The position numbers and the translations under genes were made by a program. Shown piece by piece: positions 296 through 14,660 of a stretch of 64,000 bases of DNA (positions are counted from its first letter, which is position 1; each line of letters begins with the position of its first letter). This stretch comes from SAR86 cluster bacterium SAR86B (GTDB lineage: Bacteria; Pseudomonadota; Gammaproteobacteria; Magnimaribacterales; D2472): NCBI GenBank assembly GCA_905182885.1, contig CAJJCW010000001.1, positions 439,256 to 503,255 of the forward strand, in the 5' to 3' direction. A model generated the notes under the pieces. It saw only the letters and a program-made list of their open reading frames with translations, made no database searches and was not told the origin of the DNA.

Positions 296-2086
296 TTAAG
301 TACGAATTCTTCCAGTTTTTCTCATTCGAATTGACTCTGGAGTTACTTCAACAAGCTCATCATCTTCGATGAATTCTAAAGCTTGTTCCAAGGTATGAGT
401 TATAGGAGTAACAAGGATAAGATTCTCATCAGTTCCAGCGGCCCTAATATTATTTAATTGTTTCGCCTTAGTTGGGTTAACAGGAAGATCATTATCTCTT
501 GAATGGAGACCAACTATCTGACCAATATAAACCTCATTACCATGACCTAAAAATAACTTTCCTCTATTTTGAAGGTTGAAAAGGGCGTACGCCAAAGTTT
601 TTCCAGCAGTCATTGAATACATAACACCATTATTTCTTTTAGCTATTTCACCAGCTTTAACTGGGCCGTAATGATCAAAGACACTGGTCATAATCCCACT
701 GCCGCTTGTGATAGTTAGAAAATGTGATCTAAAGCCTATTATGCCTCTTGATGGGGCTATAAATTCTAGCTTAACTCTTCCTTTTCCATCAGAATCCATA
801 CTTTGAAGTTCTGCCTTTCTTGATCCTAGCTCCTCCATAACCGCACCTTGATGCATTTCTTCAACATCAATGACTATTTGCTCATAAGGTTCATGAATTT
901 TTCCATCAACTTCCTTCTGGACTACCTGAGGCTTAGAGATTCCTAGTTCATAGCCTTCTCTTCTCATGGTCTCAATAAGGACTGATAAATGAAGCTCGCC
1001 TCTTCCCGAGACAATAAATTTGTCAGGCGTTTCACCCGGGATAACTTTTAAGGCTACGTTTGATATTAACTCTTTATCTAATCTTTCTTTTATATTTCTA
1101 GAGGTAACATATTTACCTTCTTTACCAGCAAATGGCGAGTCATTAACCTGAAATTTCATGCTAACAGTAGGCTCATCAACTGAGAGAGCTGGAAGCGCCT
1201 CAACAGCTGCAGGTGCACATATGGTGTCTGAGATATTTAATTTATCTATACCAGTAATACAGACTATTGATCCAGCTTCTGCTTCCGGAACTTCTACCCT
1301 ATCTAATCCCTCATAGCCCATAACCTGGAGCACTTTACCTTTTCTAGTATTACCATCTCTATCAACAACAACTACCTGCTCGTTAGGCCTTACAACACCT
1401 CGTTTAATTCTTCCTATTCCTATAACCCCAACATAACTATTGCTATCTAGAGCACTAATCTGTAATTGCAGAGGCCCGTCAATATTAACTTCTGGAGCTG
1501 GAACTTTATCTAAAATCATTTGCAATAAAGGAGTCATATCATCACTCATGCTCTCAGGCTCAAGTCCTGCAATTCCTTCAATAGCTGATGCATATATAAC
1601 AGGGAAATCTAACTGCTCATCAGTTCCTCCAAGCCTATCAAATAGATCAAAAACTTGGTCTAAAACCCAATGAGGTCTTGCATCTGGTCTATCCACTTTA
1701 TTGATAACAACGATTGGTTTTAAGCCTTTCTCAAAAGCTTTTTGTGTTACAAATCTAGTTTGAGGCATCGGCCCATCCACAGCATCAACTAATAGCAATA
1801 CTGAATCAACCATAGAAAGAGCTCTTTCAACCTCTCCACCAAAGTCAGCATGACCGGGAGTATCTACAATATTAATAAGATGATCTTCCCAAATAATAGA
1901 GGTATTTTTTGCCGTTATCGTTATTCCTCTCTCTTTTTCTTGATCGTTAGAGTCCATTATTCTTTCAGAATCTACATTTTTTCTATCAAGCGTTCCCGAT
2001 TGTCCAAGAAGCTTGTCAACAAGGGTAGTTTTACCATGATCAACGTGAGCAATGATTGCTATATTTCGAAGGTTTTTTATGTCCAT
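296..2086 (-). CDS. typA: Translational GTPase TypA/BipA
   Basis: 596 aa. G1 motif AHVDHGKTT and G3 motif DTPGHADF are present. It has an EF-G-like domain order without domain IV and is full-length co-linear with BipA as I know it. Confidence 0.95.
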   Translation of the reverse strand: MDIKNLRNIAIIAHVDHGKTTLVDKLLGQSGTLDRKNVDSERIMDSNDQEKERGITITAKNTSIIWEDHLINIVDTPGHADFGGEVERALSMVDSVLLLVDAVDGPMPQTRFVTQKAFEKGLKPIVVINKVDRPDARPHWVLDQVFDLFDRLGGTDEQLDFPVIYASAIEGIAGLEPESMSDDMTPLLQMILDKVPAPEVNIDGPLQLQISALDSNSYVGVIGIGRIKRGVVRPNEQVVVVDRDGNTRKGKVLQVMGYEGLDRVEVPEAEAGSIVCITGIDKLNISDTICAPAAVEALPALSVDEPTVSMKFQVNDSPFAGKEGKYVTSRNIKERLDKELISNVALKVIPGETPDKFIVSGRGELHLSVLIETMRREGYELGISKPQVVQKEVDGKIHEPYEQIVIDVEEMHQGAVMEELGSRKAELQSMDSDGKGRVKLEFIAPSRGIIGFRSHFLTITSGSGIMTSVFDHYGPVKAGEIAKRNNGVMYSMTAGKTLAYALFNLQNRGKLFLGHGNEVYIGQIVGLHSRDNDLPVNPTKAKQLNNIRAAGTDENLILVTPITHTLEQALEFIEDDELVEVTPESIRMRKTGRIRT

Positions 2087-2126
2087 GTTATTAGTGTTTT
2101 AAAAAGGGGGGGATTATAATCTTAAA

Positions 2127-3407
2127 ATGAATAAATTAATGCTTTTCTTTGTCCTTATATTTTCAACCTACGGTTTCTCTGATCTAAAGCAAGATCTTGA
2201 TAGGCAGCTAGAGCCCCTAATGGAGAAGGTTATAAGCTGGCGCCATGATATTCATCAGAATCCAGAGCTTAGTAATAGAGAATATAGAACTGCAAAAAAA
2301 ATAGCAGTTCACCTTAAATCCTTAGGTATTAAAGTAGAAACAAAGATTGCTTACACTGGAGTGGTTGGCTTGATAGAAGGCGGACTTCCAGGACCTACCA
2401 TTGCCTTAAGAGCAGACATGGATGCTCTTCCTGTTATAGAAAAAACAGGATTGCCATTTGCATCTAAAGACAAAACGAAATACCTAGGCCAAACAGTCGG
2501 CATAATGCATGCATGCGGGCATGATGCGCATGTAGCAATTCTAATGGGTGTAGCTGAGTTTTTATCACAAAATAAAGATCAAATTAAAGGCAATATAGTT
2601 TTAATATTTCAACCTGCAGAAGAGGGTCCTCCTGAGGGAGAAAACGGCGGCGCAAAGATGATGCTTGAAGAGGGGTTGTTCGAAAAATATGATCCTGAAG
2701 TGATATTTGGTCTTCATGTTGGAAATGGTCCTCATGGATATGTCAGTGTTGTTTCTGGACCGGCCATGGCTGCTGCGTCTACCTATAGAATTAAAGTAAA
2801 AGGAGTCCAGGCTCATGGATCAAGGCCTTGGGATTCAATCGATCCTGTTATGGCAAGTGTCGAACTAATTCAAGGCCTAAATACAATTGTAAGTAGAAGA
2901 ATAAATATTATTAACAATCCAGCTGTAGTATCTGTAGGCATTATTAGATCGGGTACAAGAGGGAATATTATCCCAGAAGATGCAGAAATACAGGGAACCA
3001 TTAGAACTTTTGATCCTGAGCTTAGGGCTGAAATTTATGATGAAATAAGACAAATAGCATCAGGCGTAGCTTTGGGGACAGGCGCTCAAATAGATGTAGA
3101 GTTTGATGTTGGTGGTTTTTATCCCGTCACATATAACAATCCTGACCTAGTAGCTAAATTAATTCCGACGCTCAAAGAAGCTACTGATAATAAGTTTTTT
3201 CTTAGTAAGACTCCCTCAACTGGAGCTGAAGATTTTTCATTTTTTTCAGATAGAATTCCAGGAATGTATTTTTGGTTAGGCGTTAATGCACCTGGTGTTG
3301 AGAACGCTCCTGGGAACCATTCTCCATACTTTGTTGTCGATGATGGAGCTTTAGACGAAGGATTAAAATCTTTGATTTATTTAGTGTTAGAATATCCGGA
3401 AAAATAA
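2127..3407 (+). CDS. Secreted M20D-family amidohydrolase (aminoacylase / hippurate-hydrolase type)
   Basis: 426 aa with an N-terminal signal peptide. The metal-site motif HACGHDAH and an M20 dimerisation-domain layout are present. Confidence 0.85.
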   Translation: MNKLMLFFVLIFSTYGFSDLKQDLDRQLEPLMEKVISWRHDIHQNPELSNREYRTAKKIAVHLKSLGIKVETKIAYTGVVGLIEGGLPGPTIALRADMDALPVIEKTGLPFASKDKTKYLGQTVGIMHACGHDAHVAILMGVAEFLSQNKDQIKGNIVLIFQPAEEGPPEGENGGAKMMLEEGLFEKYDPEVIFGLHVGNGPHGYVSVVSGPAMAAASTYRIKVKGVQAHGSRPWDSIDPVMASVELIQGLNTIVSRRINIINNPAVVSVGIIRSGTRGNIIPEDAEIQGTIRTFDPELRAEIYDEIRQIASGVALGTGAQIDVEFDVGGFYPVTYNNPDLVAKLIPTLKEATDNKFFLSKTPSTGAEDFSFFSDRIPGMYFWLGVNAPGVENAPGNHSPYFVVDDGALDEGLKSLIYLVLEYPEK

Positions 3408-3478
3408 TATATATATTCGAATTAAATTATTCTAACCAATTGGATGGAGTAATATTCATTTAATAAAGGAGAATTAAA

Positions 3479-4445
3479 TTGCCAATCCCAAGTCACATAA
3501 AAGATCATTTATCTATCCCAGTTATAGGCTCACCACTTTTCTTGGTTTCAGGACCAGAGTTAGTAATAGCACAATGCAAAGCAGGAATTATTGGATCTTT
3601 TCCAGCTCTAAATGCAAGACCTCAACATGTTTTAGGTGAGTGGATTACTAGAATTAAAACAGAATTAGCTGAGTATCAAGAACAAAATCCTGATGCTAAA
3701 GGTCGCTCCATTTGCAGTCAATCAAATTTGCCATGCTTCAAATAACAGACTGATGGAAGATATGGCTACTTGTGTTGAACACGAAGTACCGATAATTATC
3801 ACATCCTTAAGACCACCTGCAGAATTAGTAGAAGCAGCCCATAGTTATGGTGGACTTGTATATCATGATGTTATTAATGTTAAACACGCTAAAAAAGCTG
3901 CAGAACAAGGCGTGGATGGTCTGATTTTAGTTTGTGCCGGTGCCGGAGGGCATGCAGGAGCTCTATCTCCTTTTGCTTTATTAAGAGAAGTAAAAGAATG
4001 GTTTGATGGAACAGTTATCTTATCTGGTTCAATTGGAGATGGTTATTCAGTTGCCTCAGCTTTAGCGCTTGGAGCAGATTTTGCCTATATGGGCACACGT
4101 TTTATAGCCACACAAGAAGCCAATGCAGATCAAGGCTACAAACAAATGCTAATTGAAAGCGCCGCAGATGACATAGTACTTTCAAGTCTATTTACTGGAA
4201 TAAGTGGTAACTACTTAAAGCCATCAATTGTAAAAGAAGGGATGGATGCAGATAATCTTCCCGAGGCAGACAAAAGCACTATGAACTTTGGTTCAGGTGG
4301 AAATACTGATGCAAAAGCATGGAAAGATATTTGGGGTTCTGGTCAAGGTATCGGCGGAATTAAAGATGATCCTAGTGTTGCAGACTTAGTAACTAGATTA
4401 AAAGCAGAGTTCATCGAAGCAAAAAATGAGTTTAATCAAAAGTAG
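3479..4445 (+). CDS. Nitronate monooxygenase (2-nitropropane dioxygenase / FabK-like) family, split by a frameshift in this assembly
   Basis: ORFs 3479-3745 and 3693-4445 are consecutive parts of one NMO protein (GSFPALNARP... then APFAVNQI..., CAGAGGHAG, YMGTRF). The frame changes at ~3698-3702 (AAAGG). Confidence 0.8.
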
Positions 4446-4459
4446 AGAGGTTTTATAAA

Positions 4460-4633
4460 ATGGAATGGATAATTTTCTTTTTTATCGGATTAGCATCAGG
4501 AGTATCAATTGTTACCCTGATGAATAATTCTAAGAAAAATAGATCAGGTGCTAAGGGCATTACTGGAGAATATACTTCAAAAAATGGCATCAAACATACT
4601 GCAAAAAAAGATAGAGAAAATCATATAGTATGA
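4460..4633 (+). CDS. Hypothetical small membrane protein (57 aa)
   Basis: ATG at 4460 with GAGAGG about 10 nt upstream. It has one hydrophobic N-terminal helix (MEWIIFFFIGLASGVSIVTLM) and a basic tail. Its stop overlaps the next start (ATGA at 4630-4633). It falls below the ORF-track length cutoff. Confidence 0.35.
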   Translation: MEWIIFFFIGLASGVSIVTLMNNSKKNRSGAKGITGEYTSKNGIKHTAKKDRENHIV

Positions 4634-4866
4634 CCTCTAACCTGCTTCTTTTCTTTACAGGTTCCATAACTTTTCTAGTCGTATTCAGTTGGTTTAAAGT
4701 TGCTGCAATTCACCTTTTTAAATTAGAAACAGCCTCTGAACCTGATCAAGGAAATGCAGCATGGAAAAAATTATTTCAAGTATTTGCTGTTGATTTACTT
4801 CTTTGCATAATAGGAGTCCTTGGAACAGGCATTATCTTTGTAGTTACTTTTAACTTATTTCATTAA
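4630..4866 (+). CDS. Hypothetical membrane protein (78 aa, two hydrophobic segments)
   Basis: ORF-track ORF that is start/stop coupled on both sides. I recognise no family. Confidence 0.45.
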   Translation: MTSNLLLFFTGSITFLVVFSWFKVAAIHLFKLETASEPDQGNAAWKKLFQVFAVDLLLCIIGVLGTGIIFVVTFNLFH

Positions 4867-5051
4867 TGAGTGATAGAGATTTAAGAAGATACTTTAAGGA
4901 TGGCTGGAATAAGCTATTTGGAAAGGAAGAGGATAAAACAAAACTAAGAACCCAAAGCCTCTTTAGAGCTAAAGAAGGGATTCTTAATGTCGGAACTCCT
5001 CACGACTGGGAAGATTACGAAAAATATAAAGAAGAACAAAAGGATGAATAA
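4866..5051 (+). CDS. Hypothetical small charged protein (61 aa)
   Basis: ORF-track ORF with a K/E/D-rich sequence. Its start overlaps the previous stop (TAATG). The next gene's ATG (5044) lies inside its last codons. Confidence 0.4.
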   Translation: MSDRDLRRYFKDGWNKLFGKEEDKTKLRTQSLFRAKEGILNVGTPHDWEDYEKYKEEQKDE

Positions 5052-5917
5052 AATTGGTTTTATAGGTCTTGGTGTCATGGGATATCCAATGGCAGGGCAC
5101 CTTTCAAATGAATTTACTGATATTTGCTATTTTTAATAGATCACAAGAAAAAGTAACAAAATGGCTTAATCAGTATTCTGGAAAAGCTTTTGATACACCA
5201 GAAGAATTATCATCTCAATGCAATGTAATTGCTCTTTGTGTTGGAAGAGATGAAGATGTTAGAGAGATGATGTCAGGTAAAAAAGGTATTTTAAATTCTG
5301 TAAATCCTGGAACTATTATTATTGATCACACAACAACCTCTGCAACTCTCTCTAAAGAGATGAATGAGCTTGCTCTCCAGAAAGGTGTTATTTTTTTAGA
5401 TGCTCCAATATCAGGCGGTCAAGCTGGAGCAGAATCTGGTCAGCTTTCTGTAATGGTTGGTGGGGACGAAGCTTCCTATAAATCTATCAAGCCTATCCTT
5501 GATACTTACTCTAAGTTTACAAAATATATGGGACCAAGCGGGTCAGGACAATTAACAAAAATGGTTAATCAAATTTGCATTGCTGGTTTGGTGCAGGCGC
5601 TTTCGGAGGGAGTCAATTTTTCTGAAAAAGTTGGCCTTAATACAAGTGATGTTATGGAGGTTATTACAAAAGGAGCAGCTCAATCCTGGCAAATGGAAAA
5701 CAGATGGGAAACTATGCTTAAGGATGAATACGATCATGGCTTTGCAGTTGATTGGATGCGAAAAGATTTAGATATAGTTTCTGAGCAAGCTGGTCAGGTT
5801 GGCGCAAATATAGAGATAACAGAAATGGTAAATAAGTTTTACAAAGACATTCAAGATTTAGATGGAGGACGCTGGGATACCTCAAGTCTTCTTAAAAGAA
5901 TAAAAGACTCTACTTAG
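5044..5917 (+). CDS. 3-hydroxyisobutyrate / beta-hydroxyacid dehydrogenase family, N-terminus split by a frameshift
   Basis: ATG at 5044 gives MNKIGFIGLGVMGYPMAGHL... (Rossmann GxGxxG), which stops at 5134. The rest (NRSQEKV..., DAPISGG, 6PGDH-type C-terminal domain) continues in ORF 5069-5917. The shift lies in a T5 run at 5130-5134. Confidence 0.8.
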
Positions 5918-6282
5918 AAAATTATCCTAGAAAATATTGTCAAGGCTGAGTATACGAACAGTACTCCTATATTTATTATTTCCATAAGACCATCATCTAG
6001 AGCAATAGATTCGTCTGCTATCTTGTAATAGCTACTTGGGCTCGTAACCAGCCATATAACACCAACCATATGAGCAATCATCAATATGGCAATAATCCAA
6101 TTAAGAGGTTGGTTTGTAAAAACGATAAAAGAAGTAAGAATTAAAAAAAAGATCTCGATGGATAAGTACTTGTTGATATTTTCTTTTTTATATAGATATT
6201 TAGCAAGGCTATAGCCATTTTTATAGGTATAAAAGAAAGCGACTGCATAAAGAAAATATAAAAAAGCCAGAAATACGATCAT
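5914..6282 (-). CDS. Hypothetical integral membrane protein (122 aa, about 4 hydrophobic helices)
   Basis: ORF-track ORF. I recognise no family. It lies in the same orientation as the MazG and glycosyltransferase genes upstream. Confidence 0.5.
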   Translation of the reverse strand: MIVFLAFLYFLYAVAFFYTYKNGYSLAKYLYKKENINKYLSIEIFFLILTSFIVFTNQPLNWIIAILMIAHMVGVIWLVTSPSSYYKIADESIALDDGLMEIINIGVLFVYSALTIFSRIIF

Positions 6283-6285
6283 GCT

Positions 6286-6435
6286 TTAGTGATGTGGAGG
6301 TTTCTCATAATCTACTGGAGGAAACTGAGACTTCTCTTTACTCTTTTTATATTTTTCGTACCTAGAAGTAACATCAGCACAGTCATCAGCTGCCGAGGGA
6401 AGTTCTTCTTTTGATTTATTGTCTTTTTCTTCCAT
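6286..6435 (-). CDS. Possible small acidic/basic protein (49 aa)
   Basis: Hand-translated as MEEKDNKSKEELPSAADDCADVTSRYEKYKKSKEKSQFPPVDYEKPPHH*. It fills the gap between the MazG-like gene and the membrane protein, ending 4 nt before the latter's ATG. There is no homology support. Confidence 0.25.
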   Translation of the reverse strand: MEEKDNKSKEELPSAADDCADVTSRYEKYKKSKEKSQFPPVDYEKPPHH

Positions 6436-6461: not shown

Positions 6462-6878
6462 TTATAGATCGCCGTCTTTTCTGACTTCACTTCTATCAAC
6501 TTCAAATTTTTCTCCGTACCTGGCTTCTAATTTTTTTTGATTTTCGTTTATTACTTCATAAGGATCTAAACCTAATGATGCACATGCGGTAGTCCAGTAC
6601 CACATAATATCTCCAAGCTCTCTCTTCATATGAAAAATATTATCTTCAGAAGCTGGCTTTCCTTGAAGAACCATTTTCTTAACAATTTCAACAAATTCTC
6701 CAGTCTCGCTTCCAAGACCCAATGCAGCTGTTAATAGTCTTGGCATTTTTATAGAAGAAGATTCTTCAATATTATCAAAGCTCTTTTTAAGAGCATCAAG
6801 ATCAATACTAGGTTCGCTAGTTACCTTGGTAACAAAATCACTATAGGTTGAAAAAAAATCTTTTACTTCTTTACTCAT
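6462..6878 (-). CDS. MazG-like nucleoside-triphosphate pyrophosphohydrolase (single-domain)
   Basis: 138 aa with the all-alpha NTP-PPase signature region EFVEIVKK...ELGDIMWYW. Confidence 0.75.
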   Translation of the reverse strand: MSKEVKDFFSTYSDFVTKVTSEPSIDLDALKKSFDNIEESSSIKMPRLLTAALGLGSETGEFVEIVKKMVLQGKPASEDNIFHMKRELGDIMWYWTTACASLGLDPYEVINENQKKLEARYGEKFEVDRSEVRKDGDL

Positions 6879-6933: not shown

Positions 6934-7920
6934 TTAAAAAGGTGAGTTTTTCCATGACAGTGAAGACACAAAGTTAGCCGTTGTGGCCTTATCCTTGTTC
7001 ACTATTTCCCTTTCAACTAAGTTAATGCCTGATAAGAACTCATAATCTTTTAGTGTTCTTTTGTCACCTAAGCCATAAACACCCTCAATTTCACCATTAA
7101 TAACCATTGATAGCTTATTTAAACTTTTCTCTTCTCTTTCATGCCACTTAACTTGTCTATTTCCATCCTCTGTTTCATCCCAGTGAAGCTTTCTTTTTAA
7201 ATCAGAAGTATCAGTATAAAGATGAAATATAGGAACAGCTGGTATATGGAAAATACCAAATCCACGAGTAAAGGCCCTAATCATTAAAGATATTTCTTCA
7301 CCATAAAAGTAGAATTCAGGATCATAGGGAACTTCTTTTACAAAAGCTCCAGGAGCAAAAAGGCAGCCAGCTGCGAGCAGATAGCCATGAGTAATTTCAA
7401 CATCAGTTATTGCTCCTATCTGTCTAGAGAATGAATCTTTTAAGAAAATTGAATCTTCTCTGTAAGCAATAATATGTGTATTGGTATCAGCAGTATCAAG
7501 AGAGTAAGTTCCAGAATTAAAATCCACAATATCAAATGCTCTTGGATAACAGGTAATAATAGGCAGCTTGTGTGAATAAGAATCTACAGATTGAATCTTT
7601 TGCATATAAGACAGCAAATAGGTATCCCATCCTTTTTGAAATTGCATGTGAGAATCAATTTGAAGGTAATAATCTTCATCATTAAAAAATTTTTGAATTC
7701 TATGTCTTGCCCAGCATGGGCCCTCAGATATTTCTGGTTCAACATGGTCATATGAAATCTGATTAGAAAAAGAAAAGATCTCAAGATCTATGGCATGAGA
7801 AGACTGATCACATACCCCAAAGAATAAGTTATCTGGCTTATCTGCATTATCAAATGCCCCCCTGATAGTAGTTTCTAATAAAGGGTCTTGATAAGATGCT
7901 ATTGAAATAAAAATTTTCAT
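6934..7920 (-). CDS. Glycosyltransferase, GlcNAc-transferase-like (Pfam 'GlcNAc' PF11397 / GT60-like by recollection)
   Basis: The N-terminus KIFISIASYQDPLLETTIRGAFDNADKPDNLFFGVCDQ and the DxH-type motif YLQIDSHMQF match that family as I recall it. I prefer the ATG at 7920. The track's TTG at 7989 would overlap the divergent P4H gene. Confidence 0.6.
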   Translation of the reverse strand: MKIFISIASYQDPLLETTIRGAFDNADKPDNLFFGVCDQSSHAIDLEIFSFSNQISYDHVEPEISEGPCWARHRIQKFFNDEDYYLQIDSHMQFQKGWDTYLLSYMQKIQSVDSYSHKLPIITCYPRAFDIVDFNSGTYSLDTADTNTHIIAYREDSIFLKDSFSRQIGAITDVEITHGYLLAAGCLFAPGAFVKEVPYDPEFYFYGEEISLMIRAFTRGFGIFHIPAVPIFHLYTDTSDLKRKLHWDETEDGNRQVKWHEREEKSLNKLSMVINGEIEGVYGLGDKRTLKDYEFLSGINLVEREIVNKDKATTANFVSSLSWKNSPF

Positions 7921-7973
7921 GATTAGAAGATAACAATAGAGACAAATCAATAATTTGCAAATATAATTTTTAA

Positions 7974-8597
7974 ATGACCATGAAACCAAAACAAATTTCG
8001 GAAAACGTCACCTTATTTTCTATCGATCCTCTTGTTTATGTTGTATCAGATTTTTTATCCTCTGACGAGTGCGCATCCTTTATTAAGGTTGGGTCGGGTA
8101 AGATGGAAAGAGCTACAGTCATAACCGATTCAGAGCACCAGTTTCATGATAGTAGAACCAATAGCTATGCTTGGATACAGCATGATGCGAGCGATATAAT
8201 TCATGAGGTAAGTAAAAGATTCTCTATTCTAGTTAAAATGCCAATCAATAATGCAGAGCAGTTTCAGCTAGTTCATTATGGTCCAGGAACTGAGTACAAA
8301 CCTCATTTTGATGCTTTTGATAAAAGTACGGAAGAGGGAAGGAACAATTGGTTTCCCGGAGGTCAGAGAATGGTAACTGCCTTGGCTTATTTAAATGACG
8401 TCGAAGATGGAGGGGCAACAGATTTCCCAGATATTGGTGTTTCGATAAAACCCAACAAAGGCGATGTAGTCGTTTTCCATAATTGCAAAGATGGTAGTTC
8501 TGATATTAATCCTAATTCACTTCATGGCGGATCGCCTGTTATCTCGGGTGAAAAATGGGCTGTAAATCTATGGTTTAGACAAGAAGCCATTTATTAA
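7974..8597 (+). CDS. Prolyl 4-hydroxylase-type 2-oxoglutarate/Fe(II) dioxygenase (P4Hc domain)
   Basis: 207 aa. The HxD...H facial triad (KPHFDAF ... LHGGSPV) and the 2OG-binding Lys (GEKWAVNLWF) are present. Confidence 0.85.
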   Translation: MTMKPKQISENVTLFSIDPLVYVVSDFLSSDECASFIKVGSGKMERATVITDSEHQFHDSRTNSYAWIQHDASDIIHEVSKRFSILVKMPINNAEQFQLVHYGPGTEYKPHFDAFDKSTEEGRNNWFPGGQRMVTALAYLNDVEDGGATDFPDIGVSIKPNKGDVVVFHNCKDGSSDINPNSLHGGSPVISGEKWAVNLWFRQEAIY

Positions 8598-8734: not shown

Positions 8735-10848
8735 ATGAATATTATTAAAAATAGAATTGTTTTTTTATTATCTTTTTTATTATGTTTGGTTAGCCCATGG
8801 CTGGCCTCACAAACAGTTGAGGAAATCATTGTAAAAGGTGATTGGCGACAAATTTCAATTGAAAAGGAAGATTCAAGCATCATCGTTCTTGATGAAGAGC
8901 TAATCAAATCTCAACCAATTAAGCATTTTGAAATGCTGTCTTACCTAATACCTAATTTGAACTTTGCTGCTAGTGACTCAAGGGCTCGTTATTTTCAAAT
9001 TAGAGGGATTGGAGAAAGAGGTGGCTATGAGGGCACACCAAATTCATCAGTTGGTTTTTTGATCGATGATATTGATTATTCAGGGCAAGGTGGAATTGCT
9101 ACCACTTTTGATGTAGACCAAATTGAAGTTCACAGAGGCCCGCAGGGCTCAAGAATAGGAGCTAATGCTTTAGCTGGATTAATCTATATTAAAACAAAGG
9201 ATCCAACAGAAGAGTTTGAAGGTACAAGTGAAGTCACTATTGGTGATTATGGAGTATTGAATTCTGGAGTAGCATTTGGAGGCCCTTTGGACCAAAACAA
9301 GGATATAACCTATAGAATCGCATTGCGAAAAGATTATTCAAATGGTTTTAGAAAAAATGTATATCTAAATAAGTCTGACACCTCCAAGAAAGATGAAAGC
9401 ACTTTAAGATTAAAAGTTAATTGGAAGGCGAGTGATAAAACCTCTATTAAATTTCTAGTTACAGAAATTGATATGAATGACCCTGCTGATATCTGGACCA
9501 TAGATGATAGTCTTAATACTCTCTCAGATAGACCTGGAATGGATTCACAAAAAACAAATGCATACGGCTTAAAAATATTCCATAGATTTAATAAATTTGA
9601 GTTACAAAGTTTAACAAGCATCACTGATACCAATGTTATTTTTAGTTACGATGCTGATTGGGGTAACTCTGAATCTCATGCGCCATACACATATGATTAT
9701 TTTTCAGAAACCTTAAGAAATAGAGAATCATTTAGTCAAGAATTTAGGGTGGTTTCAAACCCTGCAGATCTTGCCTCAGACTTTCCTGCTGAATGGGTTG
9801 TGGGGGTCAGTTATTCTGATATCAATGAATCAAATTTAAAAAATGATGATGGTGTTTATGGTGATCCCTCTGATCCTTATGGGCCATATGCTAGTGAATC
9901 TTCTTCTTCAAGCAAATATAACTCAGAGAATCTATCAGTTTTCGGTAACCTAGATTACTTTATTAATGAGACGACAAAGATATCTATTGGAGCTAGATCT
10001 GAAGATTGGGATGCAAGTTATTCAGATTCTCTTGGAGAATCTTTTAATCCTTCTAAAAGAATGTCAGGTGGAAAAGTTTCATTAGTAAAAACCTTAATCA
10101 ATGACAGTACTATTTTTACAAGTATTGCTAAGGGTTACAAGCAAGGTGGATTCAATCTAGGCCTAGGTCTTGCTCCGATTCACAAAATAGAAATATCTAT
10201 TATGATCCTGAGTTCCTGACGAATTATGAGATGGGGATTAATACAAAACTATTAAACTCAAAATTAAATATAGGAGCTGTAATATTTTACTCAGACAGGG
10301 AAGATCAACAAGTTTCAATTTCAACTCAAGTTGACCCGAGTGACCCGAATACCTTTTCATATCTGACACAAAATGCTGCAGAGGGCATAAATAAAGGCCT
10401 AGAATTAAGCATGGATATGGAATTAACTGATTCCCTTAATGTTTTCGCTAATCTTGGAATACTAAAGACTGAGATAAAGAATTGGAAATCTAGACCGGAT
10501 CTTGAGGGAAGAGCTCAAGCACATGCACCTGAAAGAAGTTTTGCTTTAGGTTTTAGTTGGAAGCCAACCGAAAAGACTTACCTTTCTCTTGATGTAACCG
10601 GAAAAAGCAGTTTTTATTATTCAGATTCACATAATAATAAATCAGACTCATATGCCCTAACTAATATTAACTATGGCTACCAAAAAAATAATTGGAACTA
10701 TGAAATATGGGTTCGTAACATATTCGATACTTATTACTCTACAAGAGGTTTCTATTTCGGGAATGAGGCTCCAAATTTTGAAGACACTCTTTATAAAAGA
10801 CATGGAGACCCTAGACATTTAGGACTTTCTGTTCGATATGATTTTTGA
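8735..10848 (+). CDS. TonB-dependent outer-membrane receptor (thiamine-related by context), split by a frameshift
   Basis: It has a signal peptide, a plug domain (IEVHRGPQGSRIGANALAGLIYIKTKDP) and beta-barrel repeats. The terminal LSVRYDF ends in an aromatic residue. ORFs 8735-10219 and 10231-10848 join across ~10172-10182 (...GGFNLGLGLAP|DSQNRNIYYDPEFLTNYEMG). Confidence 0.85.
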
Positions 10849-13910: not shown

Positions 13911-14660
13911 TTATGCATTAGATTCTTTAACTGCAACATGCCAGATAACTAAACCAAATAGAATCTTGTTAACAAAGTCAGCAAGGTTATATACGATGTT
14001 TAAGTTAGAAGCATATACGCCTTCGCCACCCATTAGGTAACCGGCAGCATATCCAGCTGGGTATATAGCCCAACCAACTACTATAATTAACATCATAGTA
14101 TTGTATGCAGACATAACAGCAGGACTTGCAGTACTTACAGCAGCTTTTCCTTCACCCAAGTATAGAGTGTGGATCATGTATAACCATGCAGCCATTGCAA
14201 CAACAAATGCAGGTAATGCTCCCATAATTCCAGCTTCACCCATGTATCCAAATAAAAGCATTACTAGCGAACCGCCAAGCAATTTCTTGAATAATGAACC
14301 TGCAACATTAGTACATGCAGCAAGAATTAAGTAGAACTCAACCATCAGTAATGGAACAGTTAATAACCAATCAATATATCTAAATACTGTTGGCGTTTCA
14401 CCAGTCTCGATCCAAACACCTCTCATATAGAGATAATGCCAGAATGCTATACCAGTCACTAAACCAGAAACTGTAAGCGATGTTTTCCACTTAGCACTAA
14501 CTTGGTCTCTTTCAACAAAGAAGAAAACAGTAGCAGCAAGAAGAGCAGCAGTCACAAGCCAAAACGAAACACCTGTTAAGTCACTAGCCTGAAGGTCGCC
14601 ACCACTAGCAGCAAATGAAGGAAGTGCAATAACACTACCTAGGATTAATAATAATTTCAT
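13911..14660 (-). CDS. Proteorhodopsin, green-tuned proton-pump type
   Basis: 249 aa with a signal peptide and 7 TM helices. RYIDWLLTVPLLMVEF carries D97/T101/E108 (DTE) and Leu105 (green tuning). H75 lies in FWHY. The Schiff-base Lys lies in DFVNKILFG (K232 of this ORF). It is very close to SAR86-type PR as I recall it. Confidence 0.97.
   Translation of the reverse strand: MKLLLILGSVIALPSFAASGGDLQASDLTGVSFWLVTAALLAATVFFFVERDQVSAKWKTSLTVSGLVTGIAFWHYLYMRGVWIETGETPTVFRYIDWLLTVPLLMVEFYLILAACTNVAGSLFKKLLGGSLVMLLFGYMGEAGIMGALPAFVVAMAAWLYMIHTLYLGEGKAAVSTASPAVMSAYNTMMLIIVVGWAIYPAGYAAGYLMGGEGVYASNLNIVYNLADFVNKILFGLVIWHVAVKESNA

Follow-up and report, generated by a model that had tools for sequence, protein, structure and literature searches.

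The locus consists of two divergently oriented genes, encoding a prolyl 4-hydroxylase (P4H) and a glycosyltransferase (GT), with three smaller genes following the GT on its strand (Table 1). It lies within a window of 64,000 nucleotides from a SAR86 genome, by which we mean the whole stretch of DNA that was analysed. The two divergent open reading frames, first picked out in a sequence-only reading of this DNA, were confirmed with their positions and lengths. The longest open reading frame of the GT reaches a TTG codon at 7989; since its homologues all begin MKIFISIAS, we place the start at the ATG at 7920.

Table 1. Features of the P4H/GT locus, in window coordinates
Feature	Position	Strand	Description	Basis
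P4H	7974..8597	+	207 aa, collagen-type prolyl 4-hydroxylase (2OG/Fe(II) dioxygenase)	PF13640 and PDB matches
GT	6934..7920	-	328 aa, PF11397 ('GlcNAc', GT60-type) GT-A glycosyltransferase, predicted cytoplasmic	PF11397, AF2 model
Intergenic region	7921..7973	.	53 bp between P4H and GT start codons, divergent	Sequence
MazG-family NTP pyrophosphohydrolase	6462..6878	-	138 aa, 55 bp downstream of GT, same strand	PF03819
49-aa hydrophilic protein, lineage-restricted accessory gene	6286..6435	-		dN/dS, orthologues
122-aa membrane protein, ~4 TM segments, lineage-restricted accessory gene	5914..6282	-		Hydropathy

The spacer equivalent to that between the P4H and GT genes measures 36-61 bp in 50 of the 52 loci holding both genes. 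It had been described as a divergent promoter region, and while the spacer and the divergence stand, the promoter is suggested by geometry only: one sigma-70-like match lies within the region (7939-7967, plus strand), but a promoter and terminator scan gave matches no commoner than expected from shuffled sequence. The proposal that the GT, MazG, 49-aa and 122-aa genes form a single operon likewise stands in part. In SAR86, MazG is a member of the conserved unit and would be co-transcribed with the GT, whereas the 49-aa and 122-aa genes occur in some lineages only.

The gene after the GT was correctly recognized as MazG-like (PF03819, E=2.4e-8, with a score of 34.6 bits where the cut-off is 22), and its product is the third member of a conserved P4H-GT-MazG trio. 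The predicted metal-binding motifs E58xxE61xxE64 and E86xxD89 are invariant in 50 sequences and, at 71-100% identity across all trio loci, MazG is the most conserved of the three proteins; it has no sequence match in the PDB. The 49-aa open reading frame, at first only a possible gene, proves to be a real one (dN/dS 0.06-0.25 against orthologues). It encodes a hydrophilic protein with the invariant C-terminus FPPxxYE(K/R)PPHH, which in the window reads KSQFPPVDYEKPPHH. Orthologues are present in loci L001-L009, L012, L023-L026 and L044, and the gene is missing from many trio loci; the protein has only 9 relatives among 5.8 billion proteins. On these grounds we rejected it as a universal substrate of the pair. 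This PP-rich peptide and MazG are the only locus-encoded substrate candidates, and a search for a proline-rich substrate gene within the window returned just spurious antisense open reading frames. The 122-aa product was rightly taken for a membrane protein, with about four hydrophobic segments by hydropathy; its gene has orthologues in ~25 trio loci, and the protein has no Pfam, NCBIfam or PADLOC match. No NCBIfam model matched any of the five locus proteins, and neither this locus nor its orthologues contain further glycosyltransferases. An assignment as an anti-phage defence system was discarded, PADLOC yielding a generic 2OG match only.

Family and active-site assignments

The P4H matches the Pfam profile PF13640 (E=1.1e-16) and, as had been recognized from its HxD...H triad and 2OG-binding lysine, is a P4Hc-type 2OG/Fe(II) dioxygenase. 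Its catalytic centre is intact (H111-x-D113, H184 and K194), with each residue aligned to its counterpart in the Chlamydomonas enzyme Cr-P4H and the B. anthracis enzyme BaP4H; the lysine equivalent to K194 in collagen-type P4Hs is the ligand of the 2OG C5-carboxylate. The best PDB matches by sequence are Cr-P4H (1.2e-31), BaP4H (3e-30) and human C-P4H alpha-2 (5e-28). In a profile search the matches, with E-values from 1e-40 to 4e-20, are confined to the collagen-type enzymes Cr-P4H, BaP4H, C-P4H, PBCV-1 P4H and P4H-TM, and there was no match to PHD, PHD2, PhyA or OGFOD1 in the PDB up to E=1. By sequence and by profile, the PDB matches are thus peptidyl-prolyl hydroxylases alone, and the P4H does not cluster with enzymes acting on non-protein substrates. 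The closest resemblance is to the monomeric collagen-type enzymes (Cr-P4H-1, BaP4H and PBCV-1 P4H; 1e-40 to 4e-26), which share its size and its HxD...H...K centre.

Residues 13-203 of the P4H align with 2jig, 3gze and 3itq, so that the similarity extends over the full length and takes in the N-terminal part. The residues E95, Y108, H111, D113, R132, H184, K194 and W200 are kept in about 50 of 54 SAR86 orthologues, and R61-T62 are also conserved. Of these positions, we take R61-T62, E95, Y108, R132 and W200 to be peptide-contacting, by comparison with the Cr-P4H-(Ser-Pro)5 structure. Hydropathy analysis detected no signal peptide, transmembrane or other hydrophobic segment in the protein.

The GT belongs, as proposed, to PF11397 (E=1.8e-45, 156.4 bits against a curated gathering cut-off of 21), the 'GlcNAc' family that is the Pfam equivalent of CAZy GT60, and not to an unrelated family. 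The DxH motif (IDSH) noted earlier is confirmed as D89-S-H91, invariant in 50 homologues together with IFISIASYQD, and H225 and H233 are also invariant. A predicted DxH rather than DxD metal site plus a downstream histidine is the GT27/GT60 pattern. Although the protein has no PDB match by sequence, its AF2 model (pLDDT 93.5) has a GT-A fold for which the best PDB folds found by Foldseek are GT27 polypeptide GalNAc-transferases (E ~1e-9). Among solved structures those of the GT27 enzymes come closest, and the Golgi pp-alpha-GlcNAcTs belong to the same Pfam family (PMC8724618). Both share with the SAR86 GT the GT-A fold and the DxH metal site, and their acceptor is a polypeptide. They differ in acting on Ser/Thr acceptors in the secretory pathway and in carrying signal anchors or lectin domains, whereas the SAR86 GT, in which hydropathy reveals no hydrophobic segment, is a bare soluble catalytic domain.

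These assignments bear on a reading in which the trio would act on a nucleotide or a nucleic-acid base, much as in base J formation by JBP/JGT or the glucosylation of phage hmC, with MazG sanitizing the modified NTP pool. An NTP pyrophosphohydrolase does accompany the pair, namely MazG in SAR86 and, in the cyanobacterial locus L072, a Maf protein whose gene overlaps the P4H gene; a decayed MazG gene also adjoins the GT in the Porticoccaceae locus L057. However, peptidyl-prolyl hydroxylases are the sole matches of the dioxygenase (1e-40), which also keeps the presumed peptide-contacting residues of Cr-P4H, while the GT fold is nearest to the polypeptide GalNAc-transferases and TET/JBP features are absent. 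We therefore rejected nucleotide or DNA modification as the main reading and regard it as very improbable.

Linkage of the hydroxylase and transferase genes

The P4H and GT are co-conserved and co-oriented in related genomes: about 50 species-level SAR86 genomes retain the trio, with GT identities as low as 44%. Wherever a SAR86 locus has a GT with 49% or more identity to that of the window, the trio is present, and SAR86E has it too, at 44%; a search seeded with the P4H retrieves the same SAR86 trio. The downstream flank switches among four gene families with the trio intact. Of 44 SAR86 loci, 39 also share the upstream flank beyond the P4H (RpiR/SIS and UvrD). Part of the trio conservation is therefore plain synteny and, since SAR86 synteny is broadly conserved, the conservation of the trio in SAR86 is by itself weak evidence of coupling. 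Eight loci of a second SAR86 GT clade have the GT between AlgH-like and GGT genes, with no linked P4H. In three lineages a degenerate P4H lies beside an intact GT and MazG: the P4H of L056 has the substitution H111R, that of L023 has H111R, H184R and K194R with the RTN motif deleted, and that of L039 is frameshifted.

The P4H and GT might accordingly be unrelated, their adjacency being synteny inherited in a streamlined genome with no functional coupling, as the conserved flank, the second GT clade and the general scarcity of hydroxylases next to GT60 genes would allow. A hydroxylase is absent from ~180 other bacterial and phage GT60 loci, and linkage to a P4H was absent from 22 other genomes, from 78 of 80 metagenome loci and from all 80 viral GT loci. 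The 42 recurrent neighbour families of non-SAR86 GT60 genes, when profiled against Pfam, included no 2OG oxygenase, and in jumbo Xanthomonas and Stenotrophomonas phages the GT60 gene adjoins a carbamoyltransferase gene and no hydroxylase gene.

The evidence for coupling is nonetheless stronger outside SAR86 than that from SAR86 conservation, because the two families are joined there as pairs, tandems or fusions. In the cyanobacterial metagenome-assembled genome (MAG) carrying L072, the P4H and GT genes are divergent and 32 bp apart; this GT belongs to a cyanobacterial clade, and its closest relatives lack a separate P4H gene. In a giant-virus MAG (L251), the gene for a P4H 41% identical to that of the window lies 12 nt ahead of one for a PF11397 GT. 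Fusions include a single 619-aa protein (P0328) with a P4H domain and a GT 38% identical to the window GT, a fusion of GT and 2OG oxygenase (L091), and single open reading frames in L087 and P0250 with four GT domains, a peroxiredoxin-like domain and two 2OG-oxygenase domains. PF13640/PF13661 domains are present in 18 of 81 long PF11397 representatives and are the commonest non-GT fusion partner, the fused oxygenase domains being mostly of subfamilies other than that of the SAR86 P4H. PF13640 genes are rare in prokaryote genomes, so that chance adjacency in several lineages is unlikely. Independent recurrence across a cyanobacterium, a giant virus and numerous metagenomic proteins argues against inherited synteny alone, an explanation that we consider unlikely.

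A polypeptide acceptor is also indicated by the wider contexts of PF11397, in which the GT can be fused to PqqD/RRE and HprK-like domains and phage-like GT60 loci encode PT-rich and collagen-like proteins. Such an acceptor need not involve a Hyp-O-glycoside: the P4H could hydroxylate proline while the GT places HexNAc on Ser/Thr of the same proline-rich protein. Golgi GT60 pp-alpha-GlcNAc transferases attach their sugar to Ser/Thr in this manner, and enzymes directed at Thr/Ser are thus found within GT60 (PMC8724618). In structure the SAR86 GT itself best matches Ser/Thr-directed GalNAc-transferases, many hydroxylase-free GT60 loci adjoin PT-rich or Ser/Gly-rich structural proteins, and the GT persists beside a dead P4H in L023 and L056. 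By itself, however, this arrangement would explain neither the prominence of hydroxylase domains among PF11397 fusion partners nor the union of GT and P4H in a single polypeptide, and we judge it quite unlikely.

Viral contigs commonly carry a GT60 gene or a P4H gene, and one of 80 viral P4H loci also has a GT. A phage auxiliary-gene origin of the pair was discarded, because a single locus among the 160 viral ones links the two genes, and that locus lacks MazG.

A candidate hydroxylation-glycosylation module

On computational grounds the SAR86 pair is a well-supported candidate bacterial hydroxylation-glycosylation module, for which the analysis establishes the family assignments, the intact catalytic residues, the lack of export signals, the tight divergence and the recurrent linkage or fusion elsewhere. 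We consider that the pair probably forms a two-enzyme cytoplasmic module that modifies a protein or peptide by hydroxylation and then glycosylation. In the first step the P4H, with 2OG, Fe(II) and O2, would convert one or more peptidyl prolines to 4-hydroxyproline. In the second the GT, using its DxH/Mn2+ site and a UDP-HexNAc, would glycosylate the hydroxylated site itself or the substrate that carries it. The donor sugar, most likely UDP-GlcNAc, the Hyp-O linkage and the target are the parts of this scheme that we infer.

In the protist Skp1 pathway, the prolyl 4-hydroxylase PhyA acts with Gnt1, a GT60 alpha-GlcNAc transferase, and the two are fused in Pythium (PMC8724618). The SAR86 pair likewise consists of a cytoplasmic, 2OG/Fe(II)-dependent prolyl hydroxylase and a soluble transferase of PF11397/GT60, and linkage and fusion recur among its relatives. 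It differs from the Skp1 pathway in that its hydroxylase is of the collagen/plant type, with a lysine 2OG ligand, rather than of the PHD2/PhyA type, in that the locus lacks the follow-on transferases (GT2/GT74, GT77 or GT32/GT8), and in that a MazG gene lies within the unit. The sequence-only reading had drawn on this pathway to propose a coupled Pro->Hyp->Hyp-O-GlcNAc modification. The family pairing and its recurrent linkage support that proposal in part, but the analogy is looser than envisaged, given the type of the hydroxylase, the Thr/Ser-directed members of GT60, the ~180 hydroxylase-free loci and the degenerate P4Hs. The modified protein would also be another one, as to our knowledge bacteria have no Skp1.

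The literature searched contains no hydroxyproline glycosylation outside eukaryotes, where it is known from protist Skp1 and from plant and algal HRGPs; in plants and algae, GT families unrelated to GT60 glycosylate Hyp within the secretory pathway. More tentatively, it is possible that SAR86, along with certain other bacteria and giant viruses, modifies one specific protein in the cytoplasm by the route Pro->Hyp->Hyp-O-HexNAc, perhaps MazG or the PP-rich peptide of 49 aa. Since O2, 2OG and Fe are all required by the hydroxylase, such a modification would serve to sense oxygen or nutrients, and might provide a streamlined oligotroph with a protein switch responsive to all three. It would be the first glycosylation of hydroxyproline in bacteria and a prokaryotic or viral counterpart, even the source, of the Skp1 pathway. 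The presence of a conserved hydroxylase-GT60 unit in SAR86, a group that ranks among the most abundant uncultured marine bacteria, together with the prokaryotic fusions and the giant-virus tandem, makes both the existence of bacterial Hyp-linked glycans and the origin of the eukaryotic cytoplasmic Hyp-glycosylation machinery directly testable. The pair also offers a possible physiological setting for the collagen-type P4Hs of bacteria, for which few substrates are known to us; for BaP4H we know of no established physiological substrate or partner GT.

The order of events proposed for the SAR86 pair has a precedent in collagen LH3/PLOD3 and mimivirus L230, in which 2OG-dependent hydroxylation makes the acceptor for a GT encoded in the same unit. 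These enzymes follow the same hydroxylate-then-glycosylate logic, although the residue hydroxylated is lysine and the GT families are different. One of the PF11397 fusions bears a PLOD GT domain.

Layout of the locus and type of each enzyme

The window is a fragment of a SAR86 (Gammaproteobacteria) genome, and the same locus is present at 96% identity in a SAR86-type MAG (L007). The sequence-only reading described a prolyl 4-hydroxylase gene (P4H) divergent from a glycosyltransferase gene (GT), and its gene-by-gene account of the locus was borne out in every particular: the ORFs, the PF11397 and PF13640 families, the 53-bp spacer, MazG, the 49-aa ORF and the 122-aa membrane protein. The longest GT reading frame in the ORF map reaches a TTG at 7989; since every homologue has the N-terminus MKIFISIAS, we place the start at the internal ATG instead, and this defines the divergent spacer. 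Hydropathy analysis revealed no hydrophobic segments in P4H, GT, MazG or the 49-aa protein, so all four are predicted to be cytoplasmic.

P4H, GT and MazG are intact in the window, unlike the genes for nitronate monooxygenase (3479-4445), a 3-hydroxyisobutyrate-type dehydrogenase (4987-5917) and a TonB-dependent receptor (8735-10848), each of which a frameshift has broken into two ORFs. These three genes are unbroken in L007 (321, 309 and 704 aa), and their disruption in the window reflects either assembly indels or recent pseudogene formation. The ORF map also contains a putative proteorhodopsin-like ORF of 249 aa with seven helices (13911-14660, minus strand), a prediction that fits a SAR86 photoheterotroph.

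Coordinates of genes at the window locus and at loci compared with it
Feature	Locus	Position	Strand	Properties
122-aa ORF	window	5914-6282	-	about 4 hydrophobic segments; unassigned to any family by family searches
49-aa ORF	window	6286-6435	-	unassigned to any family by family searches
MazG	window	6462-6878	-	GT strand, next after GT; Pfam MazG E=2.4e-8
GT	window	6934-7920	-	from ATG at 7920; PF11397 'GlcNAc' E=1.8e-45, 156 bits against a cut-off of 21 (Pfam)
Divergent P4H/GT spacer	window	7921-7973		53 bp
P4H	window	7974-8597	+	207 aa; PF13640 E=1.1e-16 (Pfam)
Degenerate P4H	L056	5320-5943	-	H111R
Degenerate P4H	L023	68-664	-	H111R, H184R, K194R; RTN motif deleted
Degenerate P4H	L039			frameshifted
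Second, PHD-like 2OG-oxygenase-like ORF	L251	618-1664	-
P4H	L251	1607-2308	+
GT60 gene	L251	2321-3262	+
Proline-rich protein	L251	4673-5575	-	300 aa; C-terminal TIPTVP and TPTVPAVP repeats; 1.4 kb away

Among solved structures, the P4H sequence matches Cr-P4H-1 of Chlamydomonas (1.2e-31), the Bacillus anthracis P4H (3e-30) and human C-P4H alpha-2 (5e-28), as well as PBCV-1 P4H and P4H-TM. A profile of eight orthologues retrieved collagen-type P4Hs at 1e-40 to 4e-20 and, up to E=1, no solved structure of any other type, whether PHD2/EGLN, PhyA or OGFOD1/Tpa1. In alignment, H111-x-D113 and H184 occupy the iron triad positions and K194 that of the 2OG-binding lysine, and R61-T62, E95, Y108, R132 and W200 correspond to residues reported to contact the (Ser-Pro)5 peptide in Cr-P4H-1. 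All of these residues are kept in about 50 of the 54 SAR86 orthologues. On the basis of the structure matches and the conserved residues, P4H is predicted to be a peptidyl P4H of the collagen/plant/viral type, and not of the Skp1-hydroxylating PhyA type. Degenerate P4H genes lie beside an intact GT and MazG in three lineages and may be pseudo-enzymes or genes in decay.

A PDB sequence search with GT found no relative. The closest folds to its AlphaFold model (pLDDT 93.5) are the GT27 polypeptide GalNAc-transferases (E about 1e-9), and D89-x-H91, H225 and H233 are invariant among its homologues; we assign D89-x-H91 plus His as the predicted DxH+His metal site of GT27/GT60. GT60, the CAZy counterpart of PF11397, holds both Gnt1, the Skp1 Hyp-GlcNAc transferase, and Golgi pp-alpha-GlcNAc transferases directed at Thr/Ser (PMC8724618). 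Family membership thus indicates a probable polypeptide acceptor and is silent on Hyp.

Conservation of the trio within SAR86

Scanning a single genome for each GTDB species yielded 78 GT loci, which were examined by tblastn and jackhmmer. The trio P4H <-> GT -> MazG is present in every SAR86 locus with a GT at least 49% identical to that of the window and also in SAR86E (L056, GT 44% identical), making about 50 trio loci in all. The same trio was reached by a search seeded with a 61%-identical P4H, and likewise in 64%-identical metagenome contigs. In 50 of 52 loci, P4H and GT are separated by 36-61 bp. MazG, the most conserved trio gene (71-100% identity), runs in the same direction as GT and 16-55 bp downstream of it in all trio loci, with invariant catalytic ExxE/ExxD motifs. 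The downstream flank of the trio alternates among four gene families. The flank past P4H (RpiR/SIS regulator and UvrD) is kept in 39 of 44 SAR86 loci, and so the conservation of the trio within SAR86 could be largely inherited synteny.

In most SAR86 loci the regulator gene, of the sugar-phosphate-sensing type, is convergent with the P4H gene (e.g. L001 4472-5314; L167 5627-6472), from whose end it is separated by 1 bp or with which it shares 4 nt; the window lineage has a TonB-dependent receptor in its place. A second SAR86 GT clade (L049-L055 and L078, 42-48% identity) lies between AlgH-like and gamma-glutamyltranspeptidase genes; within 6 kb there is neither P4H nor MazG.

The 49-aa and 122-aa genes occur in only part of the SAR86 trio loci. 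The dN/dS of the 49-aa ORF (0.06-0.25, with synonymous sites saturated), together with an invariant DCADV core and the C-terminus FPPxxYE(K/R)PPHH, leads us to regard it as a real gene. Its distribution is too patchy for a general substrate, a role we therefore rejected, and the 64-kb window contains no proline-rich candidate.

Hydroxylase-transferase linkage outside SAR86

In L072, a picocyanobacterial MAG, a 296-aa P4H and a GT (34% and 33% identity, respectively) are divergent and 32 bp apart in another gene context. This GT groups with cyanobacterial and freshwater GTs (46-48% identity), and its relatives in that clade have no separate P4H gene. In L251, the marine giant-virus MAG GVMAG-M-3300009529-2, a P4H with an intact triad (41% identical to that of the window) is followed after 12 nt by a PF11397 GT. 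The proline-rich protein of this four-gene cluster (618-5575) is a possible substrate of the L251 enzymes.

The two families are also fused. P0328 is a single protein of 619 aa: its residues 1-304 share 38% identity with the window GT, and the window P4H is matched over its whole length by residues 417-607 (E=2e-14). Pfam assigns PF11397 and PF13640 to it. L091 encodes a 698-aa fusion of GT and 2OG-oxygenase. A stop-free ORF of 2008 aa in L087 (2982-9008, plus strand) combines four GT60 domains with an AhpC/TSA peroxiredoxin-like domain and two 2OG-Fe(II) oxygenase domains that differ from each other; its contig is intron-less, and the flanking genes encode photolyase and lysyl-tRNA synthetase. 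Giant ORFs of this architecture (2008-2461 aa; also P0250, P0252 and others), whose GT-peroxiredoxin-oxygenase core is common to about 10 representatives, appear to be uncharacterised 'assembly-line' hydroxylase/glycosyltransferases. A PF11397-family profile search of 1.84 billion representatives gave 4816 members. Among the best 150 of these, 81 are long (over about 420 aa), and 18 of the 81 contain PF13640 or PF13661 domains. No other non-GT domain is fused as often; peroxiredoxin-like domains (8) rank next, then methyltransferases. In eukaryotes, PhyA and Gnt1 show the same linkage pattern, fusion proteins included (PMC8724618). Because the fusions occur in several architectures and involve at least three oxygenase subfamilies, GT60-type transferases would seem to work repeatedly with 2OG hydroxylases; such 'Rosetta-stone' fusions are otherwise hard to explain. 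The pair, tandem and fusions outside SAR86 shift the reading from neighbours to module.

The best-supported reading, a genomic hypothesis to which we give slightly better than even chances, is a cytoplasmic two-step modification by P4H and then GT. P4H, dependent on O2, 2OG and Fe, would generate peptidyl 4-Hyp, and the GT60 enzyme would then add HexNAc to Hyp or to the same substrate. This logic would resemble that of the Skp1 PhyA/Gnt1 pair (hydroxylase, then GT60 transferase) and of the collagen LH3 and mimivirus L230 enzymes, but the SAR86 pair falls outside the Skp1 pathway because hydroxylase type, substrate and follow-on GTs all fail to correspond. The earlier proposal of a hydroxylation-glycosylation module modelled on Skp1 is upheld in that the families are linked and fused outside SAR86, whereas P4H is not of the PhyA type and most GT60 loci are without a hydroxylase. 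No publication describing a P4H-GT60 system in bacteria turned up in the searched literature, and the candidate module is relevant to glycobiologists and marine microbiologists.

A nucleotide-modification role of the trio was rejected as the main reading on the P4H structure matches (peptidyl P4Hs only) and the GT27 fold match of GT. The protein-modification model does not account for the recurrent NTP-pyrophosphatase link, unless that enzyme were itself the target. The L072 P4H gene shares a 14-nt overlap with a gene for Maf, an NTP-pyrophosphatase family different from and unrelated to MazG, here adjoining a P4H/GT60 pair (86-685 and 672-1562, both minus strand). A decayed MazG with in-frame stops (L057 5687-5950, Porticoccaceae bacterium nBUS_09) lies directly upstream of a GT closest to the SAR86E type, in a locus with no P4H.

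GT60 genes without a hydroxylase

No hydroxylase was found near the GT60 gene in 22 other bacterial genomes, in 78 of 80 metagenome loci or in any of 80 viral GT loci; conversely, among 80 viral P4H loci a single one includes a GT. GTs at hydroxylase-free loci either neighbour further GTs, DUF285 proteins, proteins of PT-rich or collagen-like type and phage genes, or are fused to PqqD/RRE, HprK-like, NTP_transf_5 and methyltransferase domains. These contexts are compatible with protein or peptide glycosylation in which Hyp would not be required.

Fusions of the PF11397 GT to the RiPP recognition element PqqD together with an HprK-like domain, to NTP_transf_5 or to SAM methyltransferases (L097 4911-7190 and L098 4995-6959, both plus strand; L092; L095) suggest that other bacterial GT60 members serve in RiPP-like tailoring of peptides. 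At the freshwater metagenome loci L102-L166, GT60 genes lie beside 900-aa DUF285 proteins, multi-GT proteins (GT25, GT34, GT2, GT7, HtrL), 1183-aa proteins with PTPTKT linkers, and collagen-like or Ser-Gly repeat proteins. Phage genes (tape measure, RecA, UDG) are found nearby, and these loci probably represent phages that glycosylate their own structural proteins.
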